In this document: one piece after another, positions 8,947 through 30,935 of the stretch
Layout of the letters: each line of letters starts with the position of its first letter
How positions within the stretch are numbered: the first letter of the stretch is position 1
Assembly: GCA_964586785.1 (NCBI GenBank)
Contig: CAZPHS010000003.1
Coordinates: 5,062-69,061, forward strand
Source of the DNA: an uncultured Christensenellaceae bacterium
GTDB lineage: Bacteria > Bacillota > Clostridia > Christensenellales > SZUA-584
Direction of reading: 5' to 3'
DNA length: 64,000 nucleotides
Made by a program: the position numbers and the translations under genes
Notes under the pieces: generated by a model
The model's input: only the letters and a program-made list of their open reading frames with translations
Told to the model about the DNA's origin: nothing
Databases searched by the model: none

Positions 8947-10239
8947 ATGATTGAAGAAATAAAAAAACGTTGTAAAGATCAGGGTATCCAAATCGGTTTT
9001 AGCGAGGATATCGGCATATTTAAGAAAAAGAAAGCTTTAGGCCGATTTGAGCTTGAAAACACGCTTGCGGTATTGCCTATGGAAGGAAACGATTCGGAGG
9101 AGTCAGGGGCGCCGTCCGAACTGACATTCCGCCGGTACAGGCGTTTCGCGCAAGGCGGAGCAGCGTTGATATGGGTAGAGGCGATTGCCGTTCAAAAAGC
9201 GGGCAGAGCCAGCCCGCATCAGCTTTACCTTGACAACCAGACACAGGAAGCTTTTGCTAAGCTGTGCGCGATGATAAAACGTGAGGGGCTCGACAAAAAC
9301 GGTTTTGAGCCTGTTGTAATCGCCCAATTGACGCATTCGGGACGATACTCAAAACCACAAGGCCCTCCAAGCCCTATAATTGCGGCGCGCAACCCCTGGC
9401 TGGATGAAAAATACAATATTCCAAAAACGCTTTCGCCAATCAATGATGAATCCCTTTTAGAACTGGAGAAAAAATTCTTTAATGCAGCGCTGCTTGCAAA
9501 GCAGGCCGGGTTTGACGGAATCGATATCAAAATGTGCCACGGATATCTGCTCAACGAGCTGTTGTCGGCATTTACGCGCAAAGGAGACTTTGGCGGCAGT
9601 TATCAGGGCAGGACACGATTTGCAAGGGATACCGTTAAGAATATCAGAGAAAAGACGGGTGAAGGCTTTATTATCGGCAGCAGGATGAGCCTGTTTGATG
9701 CCATGCCGTATCCGTACGGTTTTGGCATGACACAAGACGGTACCGTAAAAAGCGATTTGACTGAGCCGGTCAAGCTGATAATGGAACTGAGCCAGCTTGG
9801 CCTTGATGTCGCAGCAATAACAATCGGCAACCCCTACTATAAACCGCATTACAACAGGCCTTACGACAAAGGATTCTATGAACCGCCCGAACCTGCCTTA
9901 AAAGGCGTAGAACGTATACTGACGCTGACTAAAAACGTTAAGGAACAAACAAAGGATGTGCTTATAATAGGAGCGGGTTACACGTATCTGCGTGAAGCGG
10001 CAACCGAGGCGGGTGCGTACGCACTGCAAAACAACTATGCGGATTTAATAGGATTTGGCAGACAAGCCTTTGCATATCCTGATTTTGCATCTGACATTGT
10101 AAAGAATGGATGCCTAGACACAAAAAAAGTATGCATCACCTGTTCAAAATGCACAGAGATTATGCGAAAAGGCGGGCCGACAGGCTGTGCCATCAGAGAT
10201 TTTAAGTACAGAGAGATTTATAAGGAATACTGCCTGTGA
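8947..10239 (+). CDS. NADH:flavin oxidoreductase (Old Yellow Enzyme TIM barrel) with C-terminal Cys cluster, lacking the usual reductase domain
   Basis: OYE-type segments (AQLTHSGR, DGIDIKMCHGYLLNELLS) and a terminal CITCSKCTEIMRKGGPTGC Fe-S-like motif. At 430 aa it stops where FadH/BaiH-type enzymes continue into an FAD/NAD(P) domain. Confidence 0.75.
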   Translation: MIEEIKKRCKDQGIQIGFSEDIGIFKKKKALGRFELENTLAVLPMEGNDSEESGAPSELTFRRYRRFAQGGAALIWVEAIAVQKAGRASPHQLYLDNQTQEAFAKLCAMIKREGLDKNGFEPVVIAQLTHSGRYSKPQGPPSPIIAARNPWLDEKYNIPKTLSPINDESLLELEKKFFNAALLAKQAGFDGIDIKMCHGYLLNELLSAFTRKGDFGGSYQGRTRFARDTVKNIREKTGEGFIIGSRMSLFDAMPYPYGFGMTQDGTVKSDLTEPVKLIMELSQLGLDVAAITIGNPYYKPHYNRPYDKGFYEPPEPALKGVERILTLTKNVKEQTKDVLIIGAGYTYLREAATEAGAYALQNNYADLIGFGRQAFAYPDFASDIVKNGCLDTKKVCITCSKCTEIMRKGGPTGCAIRDFKYREIYKEYCL

Positions 10240-10241
10240 AG

Positions 10242-11291
10242 TCAGTTTGTAATTTGGCGCACGGTATCGCGTACGATAAGTCTTGGTTCAATTTTGAGAC
10301 TGGCATCCAAGGGCGTGCTGCCGTTTATTTTGTCGATCAATATTCTGCCGGCTAGATCGCCCATCTCGAACGCGAAGCATTTCACCGTGGTGAGCGCCGG
10401 TGAAAACATTGATGCAAAAGGAATATCGTCGAAACCGATGACCGAAACATCGCGTGGTACCTTTAAGCCCCCTTTATTGAGTTCTTGTATAAAGCCGAAC
10501 GCCACCATATCATTGACGCAAAGCGCCCCGGTTGCATCACATTTTAATTGTATAAACCGCTTTGCTAGCTGCGTGCCGATTGTATATTCGTAGCCGAACT
10601 GGTTTTCTTCCTGTTCGCTGTCCGCTTCAAATATGATGGGTTCGCCGGGCGTATCGGCACGCTCAGAAAGTGCGTCCAGATAACCTTTAGATGTTTCTCT
10701 GCGTGTCCAGCGAGTAAGGGGTGTTGTAATCAGCGCAATTTTGGTGTGGCCCTGATTAACAAGGTATTCGGTGGCAATTCTTGCCCCCTCGCGCGAATCA
10801 AAGAGTATATTGGTGCAGTTTTTGTCTTCAATTCGCTGGTCCAGCAACACAAAATTCATGCCTTTTCGAGAAAACTCCAGTATATTCTTACCGTCTTTGG
10901 CAACGGCGGATATGATGACGCCGTTAACTCTTTTGTTGTAGAGTATTTGCAGATAATTCCGTTCATCTTCAGCATGTCGAAACGTGTTGCACAAAAGTAT
11001 GTTGTATCCGCGTTTATGGATTTGTTTTTGTATACCGAGCAGCGCCGTCGAATAAAAAGGGTTCGAGACCGTTGGGACGATGACGCCGATTTCGCTGCTT
11101 GTTGAGGATTTTAAACCACGTGCCATTGCGTTGGGCGAGTAGTCAAGCTTCTCGACAACATCAAGAACCCTTTGACGCAATTTATCCGATACCGGATAGC
11201 CGTTATTGCTCAGAACACGCGAAACAGTTGTTGCGGACGTTCCCGAAAATTTTGCTACATCATGTATGGTATAATTCTTTTTGATTTGCAT
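10242..11291 (-). CDS. LacI-family transcriptional regulator
   Basis: N-terminal HTH (YTIHDVAKFSGTSATTVSRVLSN) plus a periplasmic-binding-protein-like sugar-binding core. It is divergent from the ABC/hydrolase operon. Confidence 0.9.
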   Translation of the reverse strand: MQIKKNYTIHDVAKFSGTSATTVSRVLSNNGYPVSDKLRQRVLDVVEKLDYSPNAMARGLKSSTSSEIGVIVPTVSNPFYSTALLGIQKQIHKRGYNILLCNTFRHAEDERNYLQILYNKRVNGVIISAVAKDGKNILEFSRKGMNFVLLDQRIEDKNCTNILFDSREGARIATEYLVNQGHTKIALITTPLTRWTRRETSKGYLDALSERADTPGEPIIFEADSEQEENQFGYEYTIGTQLAKRFIQLKCDATGALCVNDMVAFGFIQELNKGGLKVPRDVSVIGFDDIPFASMFSPALTTVKCFAFEMGDLAGRILIDKINGSTPLDASLKIEPRLIVRDTVRQITN

Positions 11292-14587: not shown

Positions 14588-17080
14588 TTGACCACTATGG
14601 CCGCTTCAATATTACAAATTAAAAATGTAACAAAACACTTCTTTGGCGTTAAAGCCTTGAATGATGTTAGCTTTGACATCAACAAAGGCGAGATCGTTGG
14701 GCTGCTTGGAGCCAACGGTGCGGGGAAAAGCACGCTATTGAAGATCATAGGCGGTATTCAGTCGGCTGATTCTGGAGAAATTCTCTATGAGGGCGAGCCG
14801 CTTAATTTAAAAACGCCCCATGATGCACAGCAAAAGGGGTTGATCAGCGTTTACCAGGAACTGAATCTTTTCCTGAACATGACCGTAGCGGAAAATCTCT
14901 TTTTGGGAAGGGAATGCAAGGATGGCCTTGGTTTTGTAGACTGGAAAAAAACAAATAAGGAAGCAGAATTCATACTGAAGGGTATGGGTCTGAATATCGA
15001 TCCGTGCACAGTTGTTAGCAATCTGAGTGTTGCACGTCAGCATTTGATAGAAATCGCAAGAGCGATCAATGAAAAACCGAAAGTACTTCTTCTGGACGAG
15101 CCCACGGCGGCATTGTCGGAAGATCAGATAGAATGGTTGTTTAAGCAGGTGCGCGGCTTGGTTGAGGCCGGAACGACAGTGATTTATGTTTCGCACCGTT
15201 TGGACGAAGTGTCCGAGTTTTGCAGCCGTTGCGTGATACTGCGTGACGGACGCTTGACGGCCATATTAGACGACGAATTTGATAAATGCAATATAGTCAA
15301 GAACATGATCGGCTATGATGTCGTTTTGGAGAAAAAAGCCGCAGCAAAAGAATGTAAAGACGTGGTTTTTGAATGCGAAGGCCTGAGCGTAAAGGGCAAG
15401 CTTGATGATGTCAGCTTTAAAGTCGGACGCGAAGAGATTTTGGGTATCGCCGGTTTGGTGGGGGCAGGGCGCACAGATCTGCTGCGTGCGATATACGGTG
15501 TCGACAAGGCGGATAGCGGAATCCTTAAACTAAACGGTAAGCCGCTCAATATAAATCATACAAGCGACGCGATAAAAAATAAAATAGTGCTGATCAGCGA
15601 AGACAGAAAGCTGGAAGGCTTGTTTCTTGCCGAACCCGTAAAACTCAATCTCGCTGCCAATACATTAAAAGACAGAGCAACCGTGGGATTTATAAAAAGC
15701 AAAGAAGAAACAAAAGCGGCAAAGGAGATAAGCGGGAAAGTCAGCCTTGATAAAGGACGCCTTAGAAGCCCTGTGCGGATGCTTTCGGGCGGCAACCAGC
15801 AAAAGGTGGTTATCGGCAAGGCGCTGCTTACAGGCGCGGATCTTCTGTTGATGGACGAGCCGTCTCGCGGCGTAGACGTTGGCGCACGTGAAGAGATATA
15901 CAAGATTATCAACAGTCTTTCAGAAGAGGGCAAAGGCATTATACTCGTATCTTCCGACTGGGAGGAGCTTTTGGCGCTGTCGGACAGGGTAATCGTAATG
16001 TCCGAAGGAAGGCTCACTCAAGAGCTTTCGGGCGATGCCATCACTGAAGAGAACATCATGCACGCTTCAACAATAGCCAATCTGAATAAGGCTGAAAAAG
16101 CGGTAAAGAATGGGAGCCCCATAAAGCGTATGACGTCTAAGATGCTAGGCAAAAACTCGGCTGTTTTGGCGCTTATGCTGGCGGTGCTGATCATCATAGG
16201 CATGAGTACATCACCGACGTTTTTAAGCATCAACAATGTTAAAAATCTTTTTTGGCAGTCTTTTACCTTTATACTGTTGACGCTCGGACAGCTGACGGTG
16301 ATCATATCAGGCGGTATAGACCTGGCAAACGGCGCGATATTGACTGTATCAGGCGTTACAGGCTTAACGATCATGAATTCAGGGCCGAATATGTTTTGGC
16401 CGGGTCTGTTTGCTATGCTGGCCGTCGGGATTGTTGTCGGTCTGATAAACGGGCTGCTGGTAGTAAAGGCACGTATGGACGCTTTTATTGCAACGCTGGG
16501 TATCAGCATTGCTTTGCAGGGTGCGGCGCTTATCATCACACCGAAACCCATATTTCCTGTGCCGGATGTACTTAAATACATATCCAATAAAGAGTGGCTT
16601 GGGCTGCCAATCATACTGTTTATCGGTATTTTGATTGTCGCAATATTCGCGGTGCTGCTAAAATACCGCCCAATGGGCAGGCGGCTGTATGCCATAGGAG
16701 AAAACCAGAGAAATGCGCATTGGCTGGGCTTGCCGGTTCAATCAACGCAAGTCTGTGCTTATATGGTCAGTGCGCTGTTGGCGGCGGTGGCATCGATCTA
16801 TATGCTCGGAAGAAGAGGTGCTGCAGAATCGGCTGTTAATTCGGGCATGATGCTTGACTCAATCGCTTTTTCACTGATTGGCGGCGCAACGCTGGCGGGA
16901 GGAAAGGGCAGTGTAGCGGGTTCACTGCTTGGCGTATTTTCCATCGCGATACTGATGAACATATTAAACCAGATTGGTGTGGGCATGTACTTCCAGCAGA
17001 TCATACGCGGTGTGCTGCTTATGGGCATTATCATTTCGTATGAACGGCGGATTTCGAAACGAAAAGAAATAACAGTTTAA
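14588..17080 (+). CDS. fused ABC ATPase (two nucleotide-binding domains, RbsA-like) plus C-terminal RbsC-like permease domain
   Basis: NBD1: GANGAGKST, LLLDEPTAAL. NBD2: GLVGAGRTD, LSGGNQQK, LLMDEPSRGVD. From about residue 520 there is a multi-TM permease with GGIDLANG. It is one uninterrupted 830-codon frame. Confidence 0.85.
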   Translation: MTTMAASILQIKNVTKHFFGVKALNDVSFDINKGEIVGLLGANGAGKSTLLKIIGGIQSADSGEILYEGEPLNLKTPHDAQQKGLISVYQELNLFLNMTVAENLFLGRECKDGLGFVDWKKTNKEAEFILKGMGLNIDPCTVVSNLSVARQHLIEIARAINEKPKVLLLDEPTAALSEDQIEWLFKQVRGLVEAGTTVIYVSHRLDEVSEFCSRCVILRDGRLTAILDDEFDKCNIVKNMIGYDVVLEKKAAAKECKDVVFECEGLSVKGKLDDVSFKVGREEILGIAGLVGAGRTDLLRAIYGVDKADSGILKLNGKPLNINHTSDAIKNKIVLISEDRKLEGLFLAEPVKLNLAANTLKDRATVGFIKSKEETKAAKEISGKVSLDKGRLRSPVRMLSGGNQQKVVIGKALLTGADLLLMDEPSRGVDVGAREEIYKIINSLSEEGKGIILVSSDWEELLALSDRVIVMSEGRLTQELSGDAITEENIMHASTIANLNKAEKAVKNGSPIKRMTSKMLGKNSAVLALMLAVLIIIGMSTSPTFLSINNVKNLFWQSFTFILLTLGQLTVIISGGIDLANGAILTVSGVTGLTIMNSGPNMFWPGLFAMLAVGIVVGLINGLLVVKARMDAFIATLGISIALQGAALIITPKPIFPVPDVLKYISNKEWLGLPIILFIGILIVAIFAVLLKYRPMGRRLYAIGENQRNAHWLGLPVQSTQVCAYMVSALLAAVASIYMLGRRGAAESAVNSGMMLDSIAFSLIGGATLAGGKGSVAGSLLGVFSIAILMNILNQIGVGMYFQQIIRGVLLMGIIISYERRISKRKEITV

Positions 17081-17737: not shown

Positions 17738-18505
17738 ATGAGAAAATTACTAGAAAAGACAGCGGACAGATTAATTGTTAAGGCATTTGAAACTCGCGAA
17801 GAGATGGGTCGTGAGGCGGCAGAAGACGCAGCGCAAAGAATCAATGCGATTATTGAGAAAAAGGGCTTTGTTAATGCTGTTTTTGCGGCTGCGCCATCGC
17901 AAAACGAGTTTCTTGCGTGTTTACTTGAGCAGGATATTGACTGGAGTAAGGTGCAGGCTTTTCATATGGATGAATATGTCGGACTGGACAAAGACGCGCC
18001 GCAGGGCTTCGGTAATTTTTTAAGAGACGCTATTTTCGGCAAAGTCCCGTTCGCGAAAGTTAACTACCTGAACGGACAGGCGGCAGATATCAGCCGGGAA
18101 TGTGAACGCTATTCGAAACTGCTTGAAGAGAATCCTGTGGACATCATATTTTTGGGTATAGGTGAAAACGGGCATCTCGCATTCAACGACCCGGCCGTTG
18201 CAGATTTTGATGACCGCCGTAAGGTTAAGGCGGTACAGCTGGATATCGTCTGCAGAAACCAGCAGGTGAACGACGGTTGTTTTGAAAAGCTGGAGGACGT
18301 GCCTAAATCGGCACTGACGCTGACGATGTCTATGATCATGAGCGTTCCAGAAGCGGTTGTCATCGTTCCCGGCGCTCAGAAAAAGTATGCGGTTAAAAGA
18401 ACAACCCACGGTGATATCACGACACAGTGCCCGGCAAGCATACTTAAGCAGCACCAAAGTGCGGTTTTATATCTTGATAAAGAAAGTGCGCAGGATTTGC
18501 TGTAA
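17738..18505 (+). CDS. glucosamine-6-phosphate deaminase / 6-phosphogluconolactonase family protein (NagB-like)
   Basis: AAAPSQNEF, FHMDEYVGL and GIGENGHLAFNDP motifs are characteristic of the NagB/SugarP-isomerase family. Confidence 0.8.
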   Translation: MRKLLEKTADRLIVKAFETREEMGREAAEDAAQRINAIIEKKGFVNAVFAAAPSQNEFLACLLEQDIDWSKVQAFHMDEYVGLDKDAPQGFGNFLRDAIFGKVPFAKVNYLNGQAADISRECERYSKLLEENPVDIIFLGIGENGHLAFNDPAVADFDDRRKVKAVQLDIVCRNQQVNDGCFEKLEDVPKSALTLTMSMIMSVPEAVVIVPGAQKKYAVKRTTHGDITTQCPASILKQHQSAVLYLDKESAQDLL

Positions 18506-18521: not shown

Positions 18522-19268
18522 ATGTTGTCTTATGACATGACCATAGAAGATATTGAAAAACTCAATCCGGATACGGCAGTGCTTGCGTTTGCATCTATTG
18601 AGCAGCATGGCGCGCATTTGCCGGTGTCCACAGATTATATAACGACGGAAGCTTTTGCACGCGGTGTTGCCGAGCAGCTCGGGGCTTTTTTGATACCGAC
18701 TTTTCCGATAAGCAATTGCCGCGAGCACATGGGCAAAAAGGGAAGCGTCTGGATGAAGCCAGATACATTTTACAATATGGTGATCGATATCTGCCATTCG
18801 CTCAAGGAGCAGGGGTTTAAAAAGGCCGTCATCATTCGAGGGCACGGCGGCATATTTGTTTTGTCTCCGACGATACGAGAATTAAATGCTACGCTGAATT
18901 CTGATTTTATGGTGTGCTGTGTTGAGTATTATGATTATGTCGATGCATACAGAAAAGCAGGCATTATTGAAAGCGATGTATGCCTGCATGCGGACGAGCT
19001 GGAGACTTCTGTCGTTATGCATTTGCGCGGCGATCTGGTTAAAAATGATCAGATAAGCGACTTTGTTCCTGATGCACCAAGGACTTATTTAAACTATGGC
19101 AGCATTTTCTGCGCAAGTCCAAAAGGTGTCTGGGGCAGGCCTTCATATGCATCCGCAGAAAAGGGAGAAAAGGTGCTCAAAATGGGAATCGAGCTGATGG
19201 CCGCGGAGGCAAAACGAGCGTTTGATTACATGCAGAATAAAAACACAATCGGTTATAGTGATTTTTAA
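18522..19268 (+). CDS. creatininase-family (cyclic amide) amidohydrolase
   Basis: SIEQHGAHLPVSTDY signature, later RGHGG and HADELETS. I start at the ATG at 18522; the ORF-track start at 18357 overlaps the upstream gene. Confidence 0.8.
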   Translation: MLSYDMTIEDIEKLNPDTAVLAFASIEQHGAHLPVSTDYITTEAFARGVAEQLGAFLIPTFPISNCREHMGKKGSVWMKPDTFYNMVIDICHSLKEQGFKKAVIIRGHGGIFVLSPTIRELNATLNSDFMVCCVEYYDYVDAYRKAGIIESDVCLHADELETSVVMHLRGDLVKNDQISDFVPDAPRTYLNYGSIFCASPKGVWGRPSYASAEKGEKVLKMGIELMAAEAKRAFDYMQNKNTIGYSDF

Positions 19269-19322: not shown

Positions 19323-19967
19323 TTGAAGAGGGTTAAAGACAGCAGAAAATCAAAAGAAGATATATTGAATGCCGCAGAGATGCTGTTTAGCCAAAAAGGT
19401 TTATATGGTACGCGCGTTGATGACATCGCGGTGATGGCAAAAATCAATAAGCGCATGATCTATGAATATTTCGGTTCTAAAGTGGATTTGTATAAAGAGG
19501 TGCTGACAAAGGTATACAGCAAGATCGGCAACACAGGAAAGGCTGTAATCCGGCAGGACATGGTGTATACGCAGGCAGTAAAAAATGCAGCCGCATTTTA
19601 TTTTAACTACTTAAATGCGCACCCGACATATGTAAATCTTTTGCTGTGGGAGAATCTGAACCAAGGGGAATACATCTCTAAGGTTCAGATAAAAGAGCTC
19701 AATCAGCCGGTGCTTGAGGACCTGCAAAAGATTATAGAACGTGACCAGAAAAACGGTACCATCAGAAGCGATTTTGAGTCTAAATTTATTATCACGGCGC
19801 TGCTGACAAGCACGTTTGCGTATTTTTCAAACAGGTATACGCTCTCAAAGCTGCTGCAGTATGATTTTAAATCGATACAAAGCATACAGAAAAGGGCGGA
19901 AGACTTAGCCGAGATGATGATTGCATATATACAGAAAACTAAGGAGGAAGAAGATGAAAAAAATTAA
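19323..19967 (+). CDS. TetR/AcrR-family transcriptional regulator
   Basis: N-terminal HTH: KEDILNAAEMLFSQKGLYGTRVDDIAVMAKINKRMIYEYFGSK. Confidence 0.9.
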   Translation: MKRVKDSRKSKEDILNAAEMLFSQKGLYGTRVDDIAVMAKINKRMIYEYFGSKVDLYKEVLTKVYSKIGNTGKAVIRQDMVYTQAVKNAAAFYFNYLNAHPTYVNLLLWENLNQGEYISKVQIKELNQPVLEDLQKIIERDQKNGTIRSDFESKFIITALLTSTFAYFSNRYTLSKLLQYDFKSIQSIQKRAEDLAEMMIAYIQKTKEEEDEKN

Positions 19968-21024
19968 AGTGCTGCTCTTGGGTGCGGCATTCAGCGCGGA
20001 CCTGCATGTTGATGCATATGCCAGAATCAAAGACAAAGCGCAGATTGTCGCGATAGCCGATAAAGATGCAGCGCGTATTGAAGCGCTCGCAAAGCGTTAC
20101 GGTATTGAAGGATATCAGGCTTTTGACAGCTATGAAGAAGCAATAGAGAAGGTGGACTGCGATTTGGTCGATATTTGTCTTCCCAACTTTTTGCACCATG
20201 ACCCGGTGATCCGTGCGTTGAACAAAGGACGGGATATTATAAGCGAAAAACCGCTGGCGACTTCGGTAAAGCACGGTGAAGAAATGATCACTTTGGCCGA
20301 GCAAAAAGGCAGGCATATCTATTACGCGGAAGACTGGCTGTTTTCTCCGGCCATTTGCAAAGCACTGGATATGATCAAACAGGGGGGTATCGGAAAACCG
20401 GTGTTTATCCGCGCGCGCGAATGCCACTGCGGCTCGCACAGTCCTTTTGCTCAGAAATTAAAATACTGCGGCGGCGGCAGCATGATCCACTTAGGCATTC
20501 ATCCGATCGGACTTATGCTGGCGCTTAAGGATAACAATTGGACCGAGCTTAGCGCCATGACATCGGGCGGTATGGACGGCAATTTGATACATAAACAGAT
20601 GGAAGGCGAAGATTGGGCGGTGGTCACAATGAAATTCAGCGACGGTACAGCGGGGCTCTTAGAAGGCAATTATGTGACCACAGGCGGCATGGAAGACATC
20701 ATTGATATATACGGCACACAAGGGTGCCTGCATCTTGATCTGACATTTACCAGCGCCATAAAGTGCTACAGCATACCCGGCGTGGATTATACGGTGGAAA
20801 AGGCGGAGATTACGACAGGATGGTCGCGCCCCGCCGTCGATGAGAAATTCAACCTCGGATATGTCAAAGAAATCGAGTATTTTGTCGATTGCTGCAGAGA
20901 GGACAAAGAAGCAGGTGTTGGAATGCGCGGTATCGACGGGCTTGAGGCGTTGCGCGTTATCGACCTTATCTATAAGTCGGCCAAAGAAGGCAGAACGATG
21001 AAAAACGAAAGACTGAAGGTGTAG
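19954..21024 (+). CDS. Gfo/Idh/MocA-family NAD(P)-dependent oxidoreductase
   Basis: A TAAGGAGG RBS precedes the ATG at 19954. N-terminal Rossmann fold (KVLLLGAAFSA), an EKP motif (ISEKPLA) and a C-terminal alpha/beta domain. It overlaps the TetR gene end by 14 nt. Confidence 0.85.
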   Translation: MKKIKVLLLGAAFSADLHVDAYARIKDKAQIVAIADKDAARIEALAKRYGIEGYQAFDSYEEAIEKVDCDLVDICLPNFLHHDPVIRALNKGRDIISEKPLATSVKHGEEMITLAEQKGRHIYYAEDWLFSPAICKALDMIKQGGIGKPVFIRARECHCGSHSPFAQKLKYCGGGSMIHLGIHPIGLMLALKDNNWTELSAMTSGGMDGNLIHKQMEGEDWAVVTMKFSDGTAGLLEGNYVTTGGMEDIIDIYGTQGCLHLDLTFTSAIKCYSIPGVDYTVEKAEITTGWSRPAVDEKFNLGYVKEIEYFVDCCREDKEAGVGMRGIDGLEALRVIDLIYKSAKEGRTMKNERLKV

Positions 21025-21027
21025 CAG

Positions 21028-23661
21028 ATGCCGAAAGAAATCATTATACCGGTTGAAATAGGCGGTGTGACGTTCAAGAATCCGTTTTATGTTGCGTCGG
21101 GCCCGACGACAAAATCGGTCAAGCAGCTCAAAAGGATAGAAGAGACGGGCTGGGCGGCAGCCAGTATCAAGCTGACGATAGACCCGACGCCCTATGTGAA
21201 CAGAAAGCCGCGTTACGCCATTTTCAATGATAGAGATGCGCTTTGCTTTACAGCGGAAAAAAGGCTGGAGTTTGAGCAGGGACTGAAACTAATGGAGGAT
21301 GCCAAAAAGGAGCTGAGCGGACTGCTGCTTTTCGCCAATATCACATACGCCGGAGACAAAGGGTATCTTGGCTGGGTCAATATGGCCAAAAAGTTTGAAG
21401 AAGCAGGAGCTGATATCATCGAGCTGAATATGTGCTGCCCGAACATGTCTTATAATATGGAGCTGACATCAGGAAATGACAAGGCATGCAACGTTCAGAC
21501 AGGGGCCAGCCTCGGACAGCAGGGCGATGTGGTTTCTCAGATCGTACGGGAAATCAAAAAAGCTGTTAACATACCGTTATTCGTTAAATTGACGCCCGAA
21601 GGCGGACGCATCGCCAAAGTTGCACAGACGCTTTACGCGGCAGGTGCCGACGCTGTCGGCGGTACGGCAAACCGCCTGGGGATCCCGCCTATCGACCTTG
21701 AAAATCCTGAAAAGGCGGTTTACCACCTGCAGGAGGAAATCAGCATGTCGTGCCACTGCGGCGGCTGGCTTAAGCCGCTTGCGCAGAGGGATACCTATGA
21801 AATCAGAAAGGTCAACGGATCAAAGCCGCGCATTATGGCAGCTGGTGGCATCAGAAACCATAAAGACGCCATCGAAATGGTCATGTGCGGCGCCGACCTG
21901 CTTGGCGTGTGCGCAGAGACATTGATCAGCGGATTTGATATTGTGCGGCCAATGGTCAAAGGCCTTAAGCAATGGATGGACGCGCATCATTATAATTCTC
22001 TGCAGGAATTTAGAGATGCCATCGTTTCAAAGGTGAAAACAGCGCCTGAACTGACACTTTACGGTGGGTACGCAAAGATTAAAGACCCGCATTTGGCTGC
22101 GCCCTGCAAAGATGCATGTCCGCACCATGTACCCGCTCAGGCATATGTACGCAAGGTGGCAGAGAGAGACTTTAAGCGCGCGTATGAGCTGATCGCAAAC
22201 AAAGGTCCGCTGCAGCAGACATGCGGCTATGTGTGCAGTCACCCGTGTGAAGACGCGTGCACAAGAGGCGTAAACGGCAATCCGGTGCGCATACGCGATA
22301 TTAAACGTTTTGTATTCGACTATGCAAAGCAAAACGGATGGAAACAAAACAACGAAGCTCAGGAACCGAACGGACACCGCGTGGCTGTCGTCGGTTCAGG
22401 TCCGGCGGGCATATCCAATGCGTATTACCTTGCAAAAGCCGGTTATGACGTGACAGTTTTCGAACGCGAGCAAAAGACCGGAGGCATGCTGCGCTATGCG
22501 CTTCCCGGTTTCCGTATGGCAGACGGTTTGATTGATGACGAAATACAAAAGCTGCTTGATATGGGCGTAAAGATTGTAACGGGCAAGGCGCTTGGGCGCG
22601 ACTTCAGCATCGATTCGCTTAAAAATGATGATTTTGAAGCTGTGTTTTTGGGAATAGGCGCACAGCAGGGACGTGCGCTTGAGATTCCGGGTGAGCATAC
22701 AAAAGGCGTAATCAACGCGGTCGATTTTCTAAAGCGGGTCAGCCTTGGTGAAAAGCCAAACGTAGGCAATACCGTTGTGGTATTGGGAGGCGGATTCACG
22801 GCGGTGGATTCGGCACGGACAGCCAAGCGGCTCGGCGCACAAAACGTCTATATTGCTTACCGCCGTACAAAAGAGCAAATGCCCGCGACGGCGGAAGAAA
22901 TTGCCGAGGCCGAGGTCGAAGGTATCAGAATCATGTATCTTGTATCCCCTGTCGAAGTCGTAGAAAGCGGCGGCAGGCTTGGTCTTAAGATGAGCAATCA
23001 GGTGCTCGGAGGCCGGGATGATACCCAAAGGAGAAGGCCCGAGTCCGTTAACGGCGCACAGTTTACACTGCCGTGCGATACTGTGATTGTTGCAATCGGA
23101 CAGCAGGTTGAGCCTGTCGGAGGCATTGACTTAAAGAACGGTGCTATTAAGGCTGACGAAGAGTCGCTAAGGGTTCAGGAAGGCGTCTTTGCTGGTGGCG
23201 ATTCGGTCGAAGTCAAGACCATTATCGCGGCTGTTGCTGCAGGAAAAAAAGCAGCTGTTTCAATCGACAAGTTTATACGCGGCGAGCAGGCCATCCTTCA
23301 ATATGAACCGCAGGGCGGTGTTGTGGATAAAGAAGCTGTGCTTAAACGTACCGGCTATTTTAAGGACAACGAAAAGCTGTCGCTTGAGACTCAGGAGGGT
23401 CATGAAAGAGTTAAGAACTTCGAGCCATATACGCGTACGATGACCGAGCAAGAAGCGGTTTCGGAAGCATCAAGGTGCCTTGCATGCGGCTGCGGAGAAG
23501 GCTGCGAAATATGCAAGACCATCTGTTCCGAGTTCACAATACATGTTGAAGACTTCGATACGCTTGCCGTAGACAACAGTGACTGCGTTGCCTGCGGAAT
23601 GTGCTTCAACCGCTGCCCAAATCAAAATATAGAGATGGTCAATACCGGCGAACCGGTATAA
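21028..23661 (+). CDS. fusion of a PreA/dihydroorotate-dehydrogenase-like FMN barrel, a PreT/GltD-like Fe-S + FAD/NAD(P) module and a C-terminal 2x[4Fe-4S] ferredoxin domain
   Basis: Residues 1-340: FKNPFYVASGP, IELNMCCPNM, MAAGGI. Residues ~350-430: PCKDACPHH...CGYVCSHPCEDACTRG. Then VAVVGSGPAGISNAYYLAKAGYDVTVFE, GGMLRYALPGFRM and VVVLGGGFTAVD. C-terminus: CLACGCGEGCEICKTIC...CVACGMCFNRCP. Confidence 0.8.
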   Translation: MPKEIIIPVEIGGVTFKNPFYVASGPTTKSVKQLKRIEETGWAAASIKLTIDPTPYVNRKPRYAIFNDRDALCFTAEKRLEFEQGLKLMEDAKKELSGLLLFANITYAGDKGYLGWVNMAKKFEEAGADIIELNMCCPNMSYNMELTSGNDKACNVQTGASLGQQGDVVSQIVREIKKAVNIPLFVKLTPEGGRIAKVAQTLYAAGADAVGGTANRLGIPPIDLENPEKAVYHLQEEISMSCHCGGWLKPLAQRDTYEIRKVNGSKPRIMAAGGIRNHKDAIEMVMCGADLLGVCAETLISGFDIVRPMVKGLKQWMDAHHYNSLQEFRDAIVSKVKTAPELTLYGGYAKIKDPHLAAPCKDACPHHVPAQAYVRKVAERDFKRAYELIANKGPLQQTCGYVCSHPCEDACTRGVNGNPVRIRDIKRFVFDYAKQNGWKQNNEAQEPNGHRVAVVGSGPAGISNAYYLAKAGYDVTVFEREQKTGGMLRYALPGFRMADGLIDDEIQKLLDMGVKIVTGKALGRDFSIDSLKNDDFEAVFLGIGAQQGRALEIPGEHTKGVINAVDFLKRVSLGEKPNVGNTVVVLGGGFTAVDSARTAKRLGAQNVYIAYRRTKEQMPATAEEIAEAEVEGIRIMYLVSPVEVVESGGRLGLKMSNQVLGGRDDTQRRRPESVNGAQFTLPCDTVIVAIGQQVEPVGGIDLKNGAIKADEESLRVQEGVFAGGDSVEVKTIIAAVAAGKKAAVSIDKFIRGEQAILQYEPQGGVVDKEAVLKRTGYFKDNEKLSLETQEGHERVKNFEPYTRTMTEQEAVSEASRCLACGCGEGCEICKTICSEFTIHVEDFDTLAVDNSDCVACGMCFNRCPNQNIEMVNTGEPV

Positions 23662-23672
23662 AGGAGCAAAAG

Positions 23673-24728
23673 ATGAGTAAAACGATATTTCAGAAGGATC
23701 TTGAACAGTTCTGCATTGATGCGTTGAATAAAAGCGGTATGGAAAGCTTATACGCGGTAGTAACGGCAAAAGTGCTAGTCGAAACGGATGCATACGGCAC
23801 ACATTCACACGGCACAAAGAACTTAAGGCTTTATATTGAGAAATTCAAGGCAGGCGCGCTCGATCAGAAAGCGCGGCCCGAATTTATACTGCAGGGCGGT
23901 GCGTTTGCGGTGATGGATGCTAAGGATGCCATGGGCATGGTATCCTCGTATCTCGCTATGGAGAAAGCCGTTGAGCTTGCGCAAAAAAGCGGCATCGGTT
24001 TTGTCAGTGTAAAAAACAGCTGTCATTTCGGAGCCGCGGGTTACTACGCAAACATGGCGGCCCAAAAAGGGCTTATCGGCATTGCAATGAGCAACACCGA
24101 CCCGAACATGACGGTGCCGGGCGGAAAAAGCATGATCATAGGAAACAGCCCGATTGCGTATGCGGTTCCGGCCGGTAAGTATAAGAGTATGTTTTTGGAT
24201 ATCGCGATGAGCGCAACGGCTGCGCTGAAAATAAATCAGGCCAAGCTCGAAAAAAAAGCGATCCCAAATACGTGGCTGGTTGACGATAAGGGCATACCGA
24301 CGACCGATCCAAAGTATTACGGAAATGGCGGGGCGCTTCAGCCGATGGCGGCGCACAAGGGCTATGGGCTTTCTTTACTGGTTGACGTGCTCTCAGGGGT
24401 GCTTTCGGGCGGCGAGATAACCAGCGGCATCACAAGCTGGTGTTTTGATATGGCCGCAAAAAACAGAGTCAGCCATGCTTTTATTGCACTGGATATCAGA
24501 CAAATGCAGCCGGAAGATAAATTCATAGAAAGAATAGAGGGCTATATCGATTATTTGAAAAATGCGCCCAAAGCCAAAGGCAACGATACGATTTATTATC
24601 CGGGTGAAATTGAATGGCTTAAGAAACAAAAGGCCGATGAGCAGGGAATAGCTCTGCCTGATGATGTGGTTCAAAGCTTAGAGCAGCTTGCACAAAGCAC
24701 AGGCCTGAGTCTTGCTTGGGTCCAATGA
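23673..24728 (+). CDS. Ldh2-family (malate/L-lactate/ureidoglycolate/diketogulonate-type) dehydrogenase
   Basis: THSHGT and CHFGAAGYYA segments match Ldh_2 family patterns. An AAGGAG RBS precedes the ATG at 23673. Confidence 0.8.
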   Translation: MSKTIFQKDLEQFCIDALNKSGMESLYAVVTAKVLVETDAYGTHSHGTKNLRLYIEKFKAGALDQKARPEFILQGGAFAVMDAKDAMGMVSSYLAMEKAVELAQKSGIGFVSVKNSCHFGAAGYYANMAAQKGLIGIAMSNTDPNMTVPGGKSMIIGNSPIAYAVPAGKYKSMFLDIAMSATAALKINQAKLEKKAIPNTWLVDDKGIPTTDPKYYGNGGALQPMAAHKGYGLSLLVDVLSGVLSGGEITSGITSWCFDMAAKNRVSHAFIALDIRQMQPEDKFIERIEGYIDYLKNAPKAKGNDTIYYPGEIEWLKKQKADEQGIALPDDVVQSLEQLAQSTGLSLAWVQ

Positions 24729-25696: not shown

Positions 25697-26509
25697 ATGC
25701 AGATGCGTATCGACGGTAAAGTTGCCGTTGTAACCGGAGGGGCAGGCGTATTGTGTGCGCAAATGGCAGTAGGGCTCGCTGCAAGCGGTGCTAAGGTTGC
25801 CGTACTTGATATAAGCACCGATAAAGCGCAGGAAGTTGCGGACGGTATCGCAAACCTCGGCTATAAGGCCATTGCGATGGAATGCAATGTACTGAGCAAG
25901 GAAAGCGTGGAGAAGGCATGCAGTTTAGTTATCGGCAAGTTCGGTACGGTCGATATTTTGATAAACGGTGCCGGCGGAAATAAAGCCGACGCGACGACGG
26001 GCGCTAATATGAGCTTTTTCGATATGCCCAAAGAGGCCATAGAATGGGTGTTTGATTTGAATCTTATGGGCACAATACTGCCCACGCAGGTTTTCGGACG
26101 TGTGTTTGCACAAAAAAAAGGAGGCTGTGTCGTCAACGTTTCGTCTATGGCGGCCTTTACGCCTTTGACTAAAACGGTGGCTTACAGCGCAGCCAAAGCG
26201 GGCGTGACGAATTTTACGCGGTGGATGGCGACGCATTTTAATCAGGAGTATTCGCCGAATATTCGCGTTAATGCCATTGCGCCCGGGTTTTTGCTGACAC
26301 AGCAGAATGAATACCTGCTTGTCGATCAAAAAACAAAACAGCACACAGAAAGGGGCGCAAAGATTATCGCGGGCACGCCGATGGGGCGCTATGGCAAACC
26401 CGAAGAACTGGTGGGCGCCGTCGTTTTCCTGTGTTCTTCCGCCGCTTCTTTCATCAACGGTGCAGTCTTGCCGATTGACGGGGGATACGCCGCATATTCA
26501 GGCGTATAA
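25697..26509 (+). CDS. SDR oxidoreductase, UxuB/YjmF-like (short-chain D-mannonate/fructuronate-type)
   Basis: TGGAGVL, NGAGGNKADATT...FFDM insertion, YSAAKAG, PIDGGY. It sits directly upstream of eda and kdgK. Confidence 0.7.
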   Translation: MQMRIDGKVAVVTGGAGVLCAQMAVGLAASGAKVAVLDISTDKAQEVADGIANLGYKAIAMECNVLSKESVEKACSLVIGKFGTVDILINGAGGNKADATTGANMSFFDMPKEAIEWVFDLNLMGTILPTQVFGRVFAQKKGGCVVNVSSMAAFTPLTKTVAYSAAKAGVTNFTRWMATHFNQEYSPNIRVNAIAPGFLLTQQNEYLLVDQKTKQHTERGAKIIAGTPMGRYGKPEELVGAVVFLCSSAASFINGAVLPIDGGYAAYSGV

Positions 26510-26538: not shown

Positions 26539-27498
26539 ATGGATAATGTATTGAAAAAAATCGGAGACATGGGTCTGGTACCGGTCGTCGTCATTGAAGA
26601 TGCCGACCTTGCGGTACCGGCGGCAAAGGCCTTGATTGACGGCGGGCTTGATGTGATGGAAATCACCATGCGCACCGAGCAAGGTATTGCCGCAATCGAG
26701 AAAGTCAAAAAAGCGTATCCGGATATGCTGGTAGGAGCCGGAACGGTACTGACGGTCGAAAAAGCCAAAGAAGCCGTCGGCGCCGGTGCAGAATTTATCG
26801 TCGCGCCAGGATTCAACCCAGATATGGTTCAGTGGTGCATGGATAAGAATATTGCGATAACACCGGGGTGTGTAACGCCCACCGAAATCGAGCAGGCGCT
26901 CAAAGCCGGCCTTAACACGCTTAAATTCTTTCCGGCCAATATCTACGGAGGCATAGACGGATGCAAAGCGCTGAACGGTCCGTACCGTATGGTCAAGTTT
27001 ATACCAACAGGCGGCGTCAGTCTCAGCAACCTGTCCGATTTCACCGACAAACCCTTCATACATGCCATCGGCGGGGGATGGCTGTGTAAAACAGCCGATA
27101 TCAAAGCGCAGAACTTTGAAGCCATTACCAAGGTGGTTAAAGAATCGATCAACGTGCTGCTCGGGTTTGAAATGGCGCACATCGGTATCAATGTCCAAAA
27201 CGCGGATGAGTCCTTGAAAACTGCCGGGAGGTTTGCAGACGGTTTCGGATTTTCGGTCAAACAAGGAAATTCCTCTAATTTTGTGGGCAGTGGCATTGAA
27301 GTGAATAAGGCGGCCGGGCTAGGTGCCAACGGGCACATTGCGATACGCACCAGCAGCATCGCGCGTGCGGTTTATTATCTTGGTAAGAGAGGTTATTGCG
27401 TCGACTGGAGCACCAGTAAAGGGCCGGAGCAAAGGCCGGTTGCTGTTTATCTGAAAGACGAAATCGGCGGCTTTGCAATACACCTTTTACAAAAATAG
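26539..27498 (+). CDS. eda: KDPG/KHG aldolase fused to a C-terminal VOC (glyoxalase-like) domain
   Basis: The first ~210 aa are Eda-like (VPVVVIEDA, EITMRT, GAGTVL, KFFPA, IPTGGV). A further ~105 aa (MAHIGINVQNADES...GHIAIRTSSIARAVYYL...FAIHLLQK) looks like a single VOC module. Confidence 0.8.
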   Translation: MDNVLKKIGDMGLVPVVVIEDADLAVPAAKALIDGGLDVMEITMRTEQGIAAIEKVKKAYPDMLVGAGTVLTVEKAKEAVGAGAEFIVAPGFNPDMVQWCMDKNIAITPGCVTPTEIEQALKAGLNTLKFFPANIYGGIDGCKALNGPYRMVKFIPTGGVSLSNLSDFTDKPFIHAIGGGWLCKTADIKAQNFEAITKVVKESINVLLGFEMAHIGINVQNADESLKTAGRFADGFGFSVKQGNSSNFVGSGIEVNKAAGLGANGHIAIRTSSIARAVYYLGKRGYCVDWSTSKGPEQRPVAVYLKDEIGGFAIHLLQK

Positions 27499-27507
27499 CG
27501 GAGGAAC

Positions 27508-28542
27508 ATGATGATGAAAAAAGTTATTACATTCGGAGAAGTGATGCTTAGGCTCAAGTCGCCCGGCAATGAAAGGATGTTTCAGTCTCCCGCGCTGGAG
27601 GCGACATTTGGAGGCGGAGAAGCAAATGTGGCTATTTCGCTGGCCAACTTTGGTATGAACGTTGCTTTCGTCACTGCACTGCCCAAAAATATGATCGGTG
27701 AGAGCTGTGTGCAGGAACTCAGAAAATGGGGCGTGGATACATCGAAAATCATCAGGAGCGACGCACGAATGGGTGTCTATTTCCTTGAAACGGGCGCGAA
27801 CCAGCGGCCATCCAGCGTGGTCTATGACAGAGATCAATCCGCAATTTCACTGGCAAAACCGGGTGATATCGACTGGGATGTCGTGTTTGACGGTGCAGAA
27901 TGGTTCCATATTACCGGCATTACCCCGGCTATAAGCAAAGATGCAAAAGAGCTTTCTTTCGAAGCGGTCAAAAAGGCAAAAGAGAAAGGGCTGACGATAT
28001 CCTGCGACTTCAATTTCCGCAAAAAACTGTGGAAATACGGCGAGTCAGCCACCGATGTGATGCCAAGGCTCGTTGAATACTGCGACTACGGCATAGCGAA
28101 TGAAGAGGACTGCCAGAAGTCTCTCGGTGTTCATATAGACGTAAAAGTGGAAAGCGGCAAACTGGATACCGATCAATACAAGGCTTTGGGTGACAAGGTT
28201 TTAAGTATGTATCCGAACTTAAAGGCCATTGCCATCACGTTGCGCGAAAGCGTCAGTGCGGATATAAACGGCTGGGCGGCATGCCTGAATGACAGAAACA
28301 CCTTTAGCCTGAGCAAAAAATATGAAATCAGGGACATCATTGACCGCGTCGGCGGCGGTGATTCGTTTGCTGCCGGTTTGATATACGGTCTTAATGCCTA
28401 CAGCAGCAAACAGGAGGCGCTTGAATTTGCCGTTGCGGCAAGCTGCCTTAAGCATTCCATCATGGGCGACTTCAACCGTGTGACTGTCGCCGAAGTGGAG
28501 AAGCTCAAAGGCGGTGATGCGTCGGGCAGGGTTCAGCGCTAA
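27508..28542 (+). CDS. kdgK: 2-dehydro-3-deoxygluconokinase (PfkB family)
   Basis: [19 protein letters not shown] and the C-terminal [13 protein letters not shown] motif; adjacent to eda. Confidence 0.85.
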
Positions 28543-29795: not shown

Positions 29796-30413
29796 ATGCT
29801 TAAATTTGAAACAGACAAAACCGCGCTTGTGATCGTTGATCTTCAGAATGATTTTGTGCGTATCGGAGCCGCTTTGGAAGTTGCCGATGCACGAAAAACA
29901 ATACCTGTGGCTCAGAAACTGATTGCTTTTGCACGTAAGAAAAATATGCCGATTGTCTTTACTAAATTTGTTGCAGGGCCAAAGAGAACTCTTCTTTGGA
30001 ACTGGAGCCCGCAAATTAAAGAAGACAGTTGCTGCTTTCGCAACTTTAAACGCTATTATCTTGAAGAAGGAAAAGAGCTCGAAGTTACCGATATTATATC
30101 GGAGTTAAAACCAGAACCCCATGATTATATCATCGAAAAGTATGGTTACTCTTCTTTTAGAAATACTGCGCTGCAGGATATCTTGGCGGCTGAAAACAGA
30201 GACTCCATCATTGTTTTAGGTACGGTTACGCAGATCTGTGTTGAGGATACGGTGCATGATGCTTTTCATCTTGGTATTAAAACGCTGGTGGCAAAAGACG
30301 GCGTATCCTCGTTTGACAGCCAACTGCATGATGCCGCGATAAAGAATTTCGAGATGAAATATGCGGCGGTTGCGGATTCGGACAGCATTATAAAGATGAT
30401 GAGTGAAAATTAA
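29796..30413 (+). CDS. isochorismatase-family cysteine hydrolase (RutB / N-carbamoylsarcosine amidase / nicotinamidase family)
   Basis: ALVIVDLQNDF (Asp), a conserved Lys region, and GTVTQICVEDT with the nucleophile Cys. Confidence 0.8.
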   Translation: MLKFETDKTALVIVDLQNDFVRIGAALEVADARKTIPVAQKLIAFARKKNMPIVFTKFVAGPKRTLLWNWSPQIKEDSCCFRNFKRYYLEEGKELEVTDIISELKPEPHDYIIEKYGYSSFRNTALQDILAAENRDSIIVLGTVTQICVEDTVHDAFHLGIKTLVAKDGVSSFDSQLHDAAIKNFEMKYAAVADSDSIIKMMSEN

Positions 30414-30841: not shown

Positions 30842-30935
30842 TGGCGGAGAAGCCGGGATTTGAACCCGGGCACCGGTTACCCCGGTCTACTCCCTTAGCA
30901 GGGGAGCCCCTTCAGCCGTACTTGGGTACTTCTCC
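30842..30935 (-). tRNA. tRNA-Ser (anticodon GCU), CCA encoded
   Basis: Minus strand: GGAGAAG acceptor, anticodon stem-loop CTCCC-CTGCTAA-GGGAG, long variable arm, T-arm CCGGGTTCAAATCCCGG, CTTCTCC-G-CCA. The discriminator is G. Confidence 0.9.

Follow-up and report, generated by a model that had tools for sequence, protein, structure and literature searches.

A single-chain, barrel-first FMN/FAD/Fe-S oxidoreductase paired with a Gfo/Idh/MocA dehydrogenase in an uncultured Christensenellaceae bacterium: a probable reductase of a sugar-derived substrate

The DNA examined here, 64,000 nucleotides of contig CAZPHS010000003.1 (positions 5,062 to 69,061 of the forward strand; GenBank assembly GCA_964586785.1) from an uncultured Christensenellaceae bacterium, which we call the window, encodes at 21028-23661 on the forward strand an 877-residue single-chain FMN/FAD/Fe-S oxidoreductase, referred to below as the fusion. 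Judged by its sequence, it is an uncharacterised variant of the enzyme class that holds dihydropyrimidine dehydrogenase (DPD) and YgfK. A first-pass annotation, made from the letters of the DNA alone, had suspected a substrate other than uracil or thymine, and this now looks likely: the substrate is probably not a pyrimidine (uracil, thymine or orotate), because only one of four pyrimidine-binding residues is kept, the scores against PreA and PyrD models lie below their cutoffs, the operon is of a sugar type, PyrD is encoded separately and no dihydropyrimidinase scored above cutoff. Our reading, to which we give a probability of roughly 70%, is that the fusion uses NAD(P)H, by way of FMN, to saturate a conjugated C=C bond of an anionic ring or enone derived from a sugar, that this compound is made by the dehydrogenase of the Gfo/Idh/MocA family encoded next to it, and that amide or lactone hydrolysis, keto/hydroxy adjustment and entry into metabolism as 2-keto-3-deoxygluconate (KDG) follow. 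The best candidates for the substrate are anionic and cyclic: a sugar-derived enone, ene-lactam or ene-lactone.

The open frame is free of stops, and its translation, together with Pfam, upheld the first description of one 877-residue polypeptide with DPD-type domains and the barrel in front: DHO_dh lies at residues 9-317 (85.6 bits), Fer4_20 at 358-437 (75 bits) and Pyr_redox_2 at 451-739 (98.4 bits), and weak Fer4 matches are spread across residues 825-868, one of them at 848-868. The order of the domains is FMN barrel, truncated Fer4_20 iron-sulfur segment, FAD and NAD(P)H Rossmann folds and Cys-rich ferredoxin tail, and the motifs quoted earlier were all present (IELNMCCPNM at 130-139, CGYVCSHPCEDACTRG at 399-414, GSGPAG at 456-461, GGGFTAVD at 587-594 and CVACGMCFNRCP at 853-864). 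A word-indexed search yielded more than 119 full-length homologues from NCBI, JGI, ENA and Logan assemblies, of 864-899 residues, 60-79% identity and an identical Pfam set, whose sole database names are "FAD-dependent oxidoreductase" or "GltD-like oxidoreductase/dihydroorotate dehydrogenase". In a pattern scan of GTDB contigs, with one genome per species, a relative was encoded by 400 of 420 candidate stretches; the carriers were mainly Clostridia (Oscillospiraceae, Christensenellales, Faecousia), and further ones were the cultured Ruminiclostridium cellobioparum (DSM 1351) and a few Anaerolineaceae, Bacteroidales, Prolixibacteraceae and Planctomycetales. Closer to home, the gene was present in one of 31 genomes searched, namely its own (the rest comprised 18 from its genus and 12 from its order), so it is an accessory, patchily distributed trait.

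This spread also bears on whether the long frame could stem from two genes wrongly joined in assembly or sequencing, with the nucleotides near 22050 (residue ~340) named beforehand as the place where a sequencing-derived fusion might show. That idea has practically no chance of being right: independent full-length homologues number more than 119, and the gene is carried by about 400 genomes at species level; the fusion recurs in hundreds of assemblies, and the junction residues A339, T343 and G347 do not vary among 119 homologues. An AlphaFold2 (AF2) model built on the 119-sequence alignment, with a mean predicted local distance difference test score (pLDDT) of 90 and a predicted template modelling score of 0.79, is confident over the junction (pLDDT 89-95) and disordered only at the lid, residues 138-154. 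The junction between the barrel and the Fe-S module is genuine. The subfamily to which the fusion belongs is defined by a length of ~865-900 residues, invariant NMCCPNMS, FT.EKR, ANITY and GGT.NR motifs, 19 Cys and a Gfo/Idh/MocA gene directly upstream, all of which were found here, and its signature can be written as NMCCPNMS plus insert, FT.EKR, ANITYAGD, GGT.NR and EISM.C.

The barrel (21052-21978, forward strand; PF01180), which would be the catalytic domain, is an FMN TIM barrel of the class of dihydroorotate dehydrogenase (DHOD) and DPD; with its assignment to DHO_dh, the possibility raised at the outset that it came from an unrelated family fell away. When aligned with residues 532-841 of pig DPD, its K48 corresponds to K574, N134 to N668, C136 to S670, C137 to C671, N139 to H673 and K187 to K709. 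C671 is the catalytic acid of pig DPD, and its counterpart C137 is invariant in the 119 homologues, as are K48 and K187, the counterparts of the FMN-binding lysines. The active-site loop, NMCCPNMSYN...TGASLGQ (residues 134-164; 21427-21519, forward strand), contains this putative proton-donor Cys137 and does depart, as had been noticed, from the canonical N(L/M)SCP(N/H), with Ser replaced by Cys at residue 136 and, after CPN, a lid that is 12 residues longer than that of pig DPD. Within the loop C136, C137, P138, N139, M140, S141, N143 and T158-Q164 are invariant across the same homologues, and the pLDDT of the AF2 model drops below 50 at residues 138-154, in line with a mobile lid. The residues that touch the pyrimidine tell a different story: of the four contacts of pig DPD (N609, N668, N736 and T737) only N668 is retained, as N134. 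The loop that bears N609 in DPD (N-x-x-G-x-x-N in DHODs) is swapped for an invariant F74-T75-x-E77-K78-R79 (FTAEKRL), alignment found no N-x-x-G-x-x-N substrate-loop motif of PyrD in the barrel, and the N736/T737 positions are occupied by A214 and N215. By this residue alignment, the barrel has retained the machinery for C=C redox chemistry and lacks three of the four pyrimidine contacts. The invariant Arg and Lys residues R59, R62, K78, R79, R216, K249 and R254 are candidates for lining its pocket.

Could the fusion nevertheless be a true dihydropyrimidine or dihydroorotate dehydrogenase that has taken on a new single-chain form? The barrel's nearest named relatives are indeed PreA, whose equivalog model (NF006183) is the best-scoring named family at 182 bits, and pig DPD (E=1.9e-21), and the conserved catalytic Cys, FMN-binding Lys and N668 counterpart would suit such an enzyme. 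Yet the 182 bits compare with a PreA cutoff of 335, PyrD models reach ~100-109 bits against cutoffs of ~270 (at best 109 against 269), and the counterparts of N609, N736 and T737 are not conserved. In a maximum-likelihood tree of the barrel, the comparison with PyrD, PreA and DPD that had been proposed, the family formed its own clade (97/77 support, stem length 1.21), which includes two split proteins of barrel plus dicluster ferredoxin with NMCCPN and FT.EKR, and outside of which lie E. coli PreA with pig DPD (96/94) and the PyrD-1B of the genome itself. That genome (1.86 Mb, 96.5% complete) encodes a canonical PyrD elsewhere (247 bits); it has no match above cutoff to dihydropyrimidinase (TIGR02033) or to ureidopropionase, and neither dihydropyrimidinase nor beta-ureidopropionase is among the conserved neighbours in 74 fusion loci, where the operon is of a sugar type. 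We therefore hold this identity to be very improbable. On contig C12 of the same genome (3786-5033, forward strand; L094) there is a 433-residue amidohydrolase-type frame with one in-frame TGA, probably a dihydroorotase near pyrD.

Behind the barrel, the fusion carries what would be its electron-input module: a helical Fe-S segment (residues 358-437; 22099-22338, forward strand) that matches positions 30-112 of the 113 in PF14691 and lacks about the first 29; FAD and NAD(P)H Rossmann domains (residues 451-739; 22378-23244, forward strand; PF07992, 98.4 bits) with intact GSGPAG and GGGFTAVD motifs and Foldseek matches to NfnB, GltD and DPD; and a C-terminal Cys-rich Fe-S region (residues 794-868; 23407-23631, forward strand; Fer4_7 and Fer4) made up of an "EA.RCLxC" stretch and a dicluster-ferredoxin-like part, with 10 invariant Cys. 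The NCBIfam model PRK12771 ("NAD(P)-binding protein") spans residues 356-872 unbroken at 491.5 bits, just under its cutoff of 516, so the C-terminal ferredoxin arrived with the electron-input module and is not a relocated domain V of DPD; the picture of a PreA simply joined to a PreT has to be given up. The module is nearest to NfnB-like proteins of NfnABC/StnABC (9bov_A, 385 bits; Foldseek E=1.4e-50), followed by NfnI, GltD and DPD (227 bits), although Foldseek with the whole model gave results dominated by this module and leaves the barrel pocket uninformed. GltD models were not reached (TIGR01317, 208.7 against 447.7 bits; TIGR01318, 249.5 against 483). With the barrel clade separate and the module nearest to NfnB-like proteins, the fusion event is independent of that of mammalian DPD, as the first-pass annotation had proposed. 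A "YRR" motif after the second Rossmann strand makes NADPH the likelier donor than NADH. In two relatives, P0122 and P0126 (56% and 49% identity), the glycine motifs for FAD and/or NAD(P)H are degenerate, e.g., "ARGVAGNA" and "GDDTDAID"; such branches may use another electron donor, while the window protein retains both glycine motifs.

All 19 invariant Cys in the 119 homologues can be placed: 136, 137 and 242 in the barrel; 360, 364, 399, 403, 407 and 411 in the helical segment; and 817, 820, 822, 826, 829, 833, 853, 856, 859 and 863 at the C-terminus. The first claim of a 2x[4Fe-4S] domain at the end stood in part, in that this region is Cys-rich and ferredoxin-like; only one canonical CxxCxxCxxxCP is present, the other motif being an atypical C817-x2-C820-x-C822-x3-C826-x2-C829-x3-C833. 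In the helical segment, the canonical C-x2-C-x4-C-x3-CP is missing its first two Cys. In a separate scan of the last 105 residues, residues 794-832 (23407-23523; "...EQEAVSEASRCLACG.CGEGCEIC...") resembled positions 1-42 of Fer4_20 (E=1.2e-4, 22.3 bits, under the 25.8-bit cutoff), and a similar, weaker match to the start of that profile was obtained in the C-terminal region of YgfK. As these are the very positions missing at residues 358-437, they hint at a split or permuted Fe-S domain, and the C-terminal region may fold back and complete the first cluster site, half of which is missing.

The permuted order of the domains has precedents. E. coli YgfK, of 1032 residues, has an N-terminal ~440 residues with no Pfam match, Fer4_20 at 453-532 beginning from profile position 25, Pyr_redox_2 at 552-839 and ferredoxin motifs at 900-955. 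BLASTP aligned residues 335-864 of the fusion with 443-949 of YgfK (31% identity, E=1e-54), and the two modules are colinear (31-33% identity, hhalign probability 100). The YgfK equivalog model TIGR03315 scores 305 bits on the fusion, over the module only, against a cutoff of 835; for the N-terminal domain of YgfK and the barrel, homology was not detected (hmmsearch E=0.078; hhalign probability 0.3), in a comparison with a single-sequence target that leaves room for very remote homology. An exhaustive search of 1.84 billion representatives produced stand-alone versions of both halves of the fusion as well as about a dozen full-length subfamilies (842-914 residues, 32-36% identical) with the same domain order, most of them with a DPD-like N(V/I)SCPH loop. 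Since YgfK and so many divergent subfamilies share this order, the barrel-first architecture is an established, diversified class.

The genes around the fusion were surveyed by calling and clustering open reading frames (ORFs) in the window and in 84 related loci; counts are given over the 74 loci with a recognisable fusion, and are slight underestimates due to spurious antisense ORFs in some loci and to the joining of NfnA/NfnB pairs to the fusion cluster by single linkage (for example L013, L027, L051 and L055). The constant partner is an NAD(P)-dependent dehydrogenase assigned by Pfam to Gfo/Idh/MocA (19951-21024; this and the operon genes below lie on the forward strand), found directly upstream in 65 of the 74 loci at a median gap of -5 nt; in the window the gap is 3 nt, and the Gfo stop codon is overlapped by the Shine-Dalgarno sequence of the fusion (GAAGGTG). 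In a Gram-negative genome (L092:1379-4158), a split form of barrel plus ferredoxin, 429 residues long and with no FAD/NAD module, still stands beside a Gfo/Idh/MocA gene, so the partnership belongs to the catalytic barrel. A small 23S_rRNA_IVP-family gene sits between the two at that locus.

A TetR-family regulator (19323-19967; Pfam; 19 of 74 loci) heads the operon. After the fusion come an Ldh_2-family 2-hydroxyacid/2-oxoacid dehydrogenase (23673-24728; PF02615, 366 bits; 20 of 74), a short-chain dehydrogenase/reductase (SDR) of the "D-mannonate oxidoreductase" subfamily (25697-26509; NF006132, 362.8 bits against a cutoff of 281; 36 of 74, mostly right after the fusion) and the likely exit of the pathway, Eda (KDPG/KHG aldolase; TIGR01182, 233 bits) with a KdgK-like PfkB kinase matched by KDG-kinase models (together 26539-28542; 12 and 9 of 74 loci, respectively). 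The Eda protein (26539-27498) is 319 residues long, of which the aldolase models cover ~3-208, leaving ~110 extra C-terminal residues; it is ~320 residues long in 12 related loci. Upstream lie a creatininase-family metal hydrolase of cyclic-amide, deformylase or IolN type (18522-19268; PF02633, 182 bits), encoded at most 7 kb from the fusion in 38 of 74 loci, and a NagB-family deaminase/isomerase-like protein (17738-18505; PF01182; TIGR00502, 148 bits against a cutoff of 237; 30 of 74). Elsewhere in the survey, Amidohydro_3 occurs in 10-12 of 74 loci, never together with the creatininase family, 2-Hacid_dh alternates with Ldh_2 and accompanies an FGGY kinase (17 of 74), and malic enzyme is found in 13 of 74; a reductase of the Mannitol_dh family recurs as well, as do regulators of the TetR or LacI type. 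A third operon type, Gfo-fusion-(SDR)-Amidohydro_3, occurs in rumen and hindgut Oscillospiraceae (L003, L014, L024, L028, L029, L034 and L053), always with a divergent trio of ATP-grasp, PHP and polysaccharide-deacetylase genes upstream. An OngB-type identity (GlcNAc1A deacetylase, for which there is precedent: PMC9537276, PMC12017989) was considered for the Amidohydro_3 partner and set aside, its nearest solved relatives being only uncharacterised metal hydrolases.

The recurrent hydrolase invites the thought that the fusion reduces an N-heterocycle (a lactam, a ureide, or a sugar-linked pyrimidine- or purine-like ring), which the amidohydrolase would open before the sugar-acid genes take the remainder. 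In every characterised relative a reductase works with a cyclic amidohydrolase (DPD with dihydropyrimidinase, DHOD with dihydroorotase, YgfK with SsnA), an amidohydrolase is present at ~65% of fusion loci, where two unrelated families replace each other, and importers of the HAAT type (amino-acid/amide) of the ATP-binding cassette (ABC) class flank the operon in ~7 loci. Against this stand the loss of three of the four DPD pyrimidine-binding residues, the sugar-type character of the conserved partners (Gfo, SDR, KdgK and Eda) and the failure of xanthine-dehydrogenase, SsnA, HyuA, carbamoyltransferase or beta-ureidopropionase genes to be conserved nearby; XdhD, SsnA, HyuA and YgeW/X/Y were found neither in the window nor among the conserved neighbours. 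The CN_hydrolase, DUF523-like and isochorismatase genes of the window recurred in none of the 84 other loci, and this also disposed of an early reading of this part of the window as a "pyrimidine/ureide island". We regard N-heterocycle reduction as rather unlikely.

Somewhat less likely still is an oxidative, DHOD-like role in which the fusion would dehydrogenate a sugar-derived ring and pass the electrons by way of Fe-S and FAD to NAD(P)+, for instance with an inosose in a Thermotoga-like inositol pathway, where the Gfo protein would act as IolG and the creatininase-family protein as an IolN-type C-C hydrolase giving a keto-uronate. IolN is itself a member of the creatininase superfamily, and its model is matched by the window's creatininase-family protein at 72.9 bits; the Gfo protein matches IolG at 110 bits and resembles scyllo-inositol dehydrogenases; uronate-type reductases (the SDR "mannonate oxidoreductase" and Mannitol_dh) with KdgK/Eda downstream are as in the inositol pathway; and the importer in the window is of the CUT2 type. 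However, the creatininase, MftE and IolN models score alike on the neighbour (73-81 bits, far under cutoffs of 172-245) and so do not discriminate between these identities, its alternation with Amidohydro_3 favours amide hydrolysis, and altronate and mannonate dehydratases are absent from the genome. Barrels of the DHOD class are, as general knowledge has it, catalysts of CH-CH/C=C chemistry and not of alcohol oxidation. Literature searches on the Thermotoga inositol pathway gave nothing usable.

Turning back to a reductive role with KDG as the exit, the genome offers a further clue in what it lacks, since UxuA, UxaC, UxaA-type dehydratases and KduI were not found in it, and the only PF01081 (Eda) match is the operon copy. 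A classical hexuronate exit, with the SDR as a UxuB feeding UxuA, was ruled out on these grounds. With the classical KDG formers absent, KdgK and Eda would be fed only by the operon's own non-dehydratase enzymes, unless an IlvD/Edd-family protein makes KDG. It is mainly for this reason, KdgK and Eda without a dehydratase supply, that we infer that C=C reduction by the fusion would create the deoxy carbon after an oxidation begun by Gfo and an elimination. More specifically, Gfo and the flavoenzyme may form the core of an "oxidise, eliminate, reduce" route that needs no dehydratase and would lead from a uronate or (amino-)sugar acid, via an orotate-like carboxylated enone of sugar origin, to the 3-deoxy carbon of KDG, and this may be the sole entry to KdgK/Eda in the genome; we offer this route as a tentative possibility, with the odds against it. 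If true, it would mean that a DPD-type Fe-S flavoenzyme was recruited from nucleobase chemistry.

In the scheme that we favour for the fusion, the Gfo/Idh/MocA dehydrogenase, probably co-translated with it, would oxidise an (amino-)sugar acid at a hydroxyl of its ring or chain to give the fusion's substrate. NAD(P)H would reduce FAD in the GltD/NfnB-like module, and the electrons would pass through the predicted [4Fe-4S] clusters of the helical segment (358-437) and the C-terminal Cys-rich region to FMN in the barrel. Reduced FMN would then deliver a hydride to the beta-carbon of a carbonyl-conjugated C=C bond, while Cys137 on the mobile lid would protonate the alpha-carbon, as in DPD and DHOD chemistry. 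The reduced product would be handled by the metal amidohydrolase (creatininase family or Amidohydro_3), its oxidation states adjusted by the SDR and a 2-hydroxyacid dehydrogenase (Ldh_2 or 2-Hacid_dh), and its carbon would leave as KDG via KdgK and Eda.

Several observations sit uneasily with this scheme. The flanking transporters vary in type (CUT1, CUT2, HAAT ABC, AEC and MFS), so members of the subfamily may differ in substrate; the enzyme could run in the oxidative direction; and one IlvD/Edd-family dehydratase is encoded elsewhere in the genome and could make KDG from gluconate. The best family name of the SDR, mannonate oxidoreductase, belongs to an enzyme that normally needs UxuA, which is absent here. 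Finally, the first two Fer4_20 Cys do not appear in their usual place, so the clusters may number three or four.

A few other features of the window deserve mention. Directly after the last gene of the supposed island, the isochorismatase (29796-30413), lies a tRNA-Ser(GCT) gene (30842-30935, reverse strand), and GC content fails to set the island apart. Upstream, an 830-residue ORF (14588-17080) combines a double nucleotide-binding-domain ABC ATPase and a permease domain in one frame, and a 430-residue flavoprotein of the OYE family (8947-10239), with weak similarity to the N-domain of bilirubin reductase and to BaiCD, adjoins a divergent LacI regulator (10242-11291).

The constant pairing with a sugar dehydrogenase, and operons that end in KdgK/Eda in a genome without classical KDG formers, point to a catabolic pathway outside the textbook schemes, and the fusion family probably marks an undescribed anaerobic sugar-acid pathway. 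The family is present in anaerobes of gut, rumen and digester (~400 genomes at species level), and knowing its substrate would give five or six co-conserved gene families a function together and show reuse of the DPD/YgfK redox scaffold beyond nucleobases. There is also a warning for annotators, as the names "dihydropyrimidine dehydrogenase", "glutamate synthase" and "selenate reductase YgfK" are not transferable to these genes.

Among known systems, the closest precedent is YgfK (DOPOR), which reduces 2,8-dioxopurine with NAD(P)H, holds [4Fe-4S] clusters, has been modelled with an FMN substrate site and an FAD site, and yields a product that is detectable only when coupled to the amidohydrolase SsnA (bioRxiv 10.1101/2025.04.24.650524; 10.1101/2025.05.19.654654). 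The two share a catalytic FMN domain in front, a Fer4_20 truncated at the same place, FAD/NAD(P)H domains and a C-terminal Cys-rich ferredoxin, and both would be single-chain reductases of anaerobic catabolism paired with an amidohydrolase, a pairing that is predicted on the side of the fusion. They differ in that Pfam calls the N-terminus of the fusion, but not that of YgfK, as DHO_dh, and in that YgfK resides in a purine cluster (XdhD, SsnA, HyuA), whereas the fusion resides in a sugar-acid operon with Gfo/Idh/MocA. With DPD and PreTA, the fusion has in common the set of modules, the presumed cofactors and the counterparts of K574, N668, C671 and K709, its barrel being nearest to PreA/DPD among named families. 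However, DPD is ordered FeS-FAD-NADPH-FMN-ferredoxin, or divided into PreT and PreA subunits, while the fusion has its barrel first and no ferredoxin straight after it, a module nearer to NfnB-like proteins than to PreT/DPD, and no Pyd-pathway neighbours at its loci. The NfnB-like and PRK12771 proteins match residues 356-872 in sequence and fold, including the C-terminal ferredoxin; their partners are molybdopterin-type, NfnA or none, and their roles electron bifurcation or transhydrogenation, in contrast to the DHOD-class barrel of the fusion. A simpler format is that of PydAc, the ferredoxin-dependent PydA of clostridia, which reduces uracil, and UacX, which reduces isoxanthine (PMC7332683). 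The split relatives of the fusion (P0161 and P0173; 46-47% identical, NMCCPN retained), composed of a barrel and a dicluster ferredoxin, share with these the barrel-plus-ferredoxin format and the absence of an FAD module, and differ from them in that split relatives of the fusion subfamily adjoin a Gfo/Idh/MocA gene.

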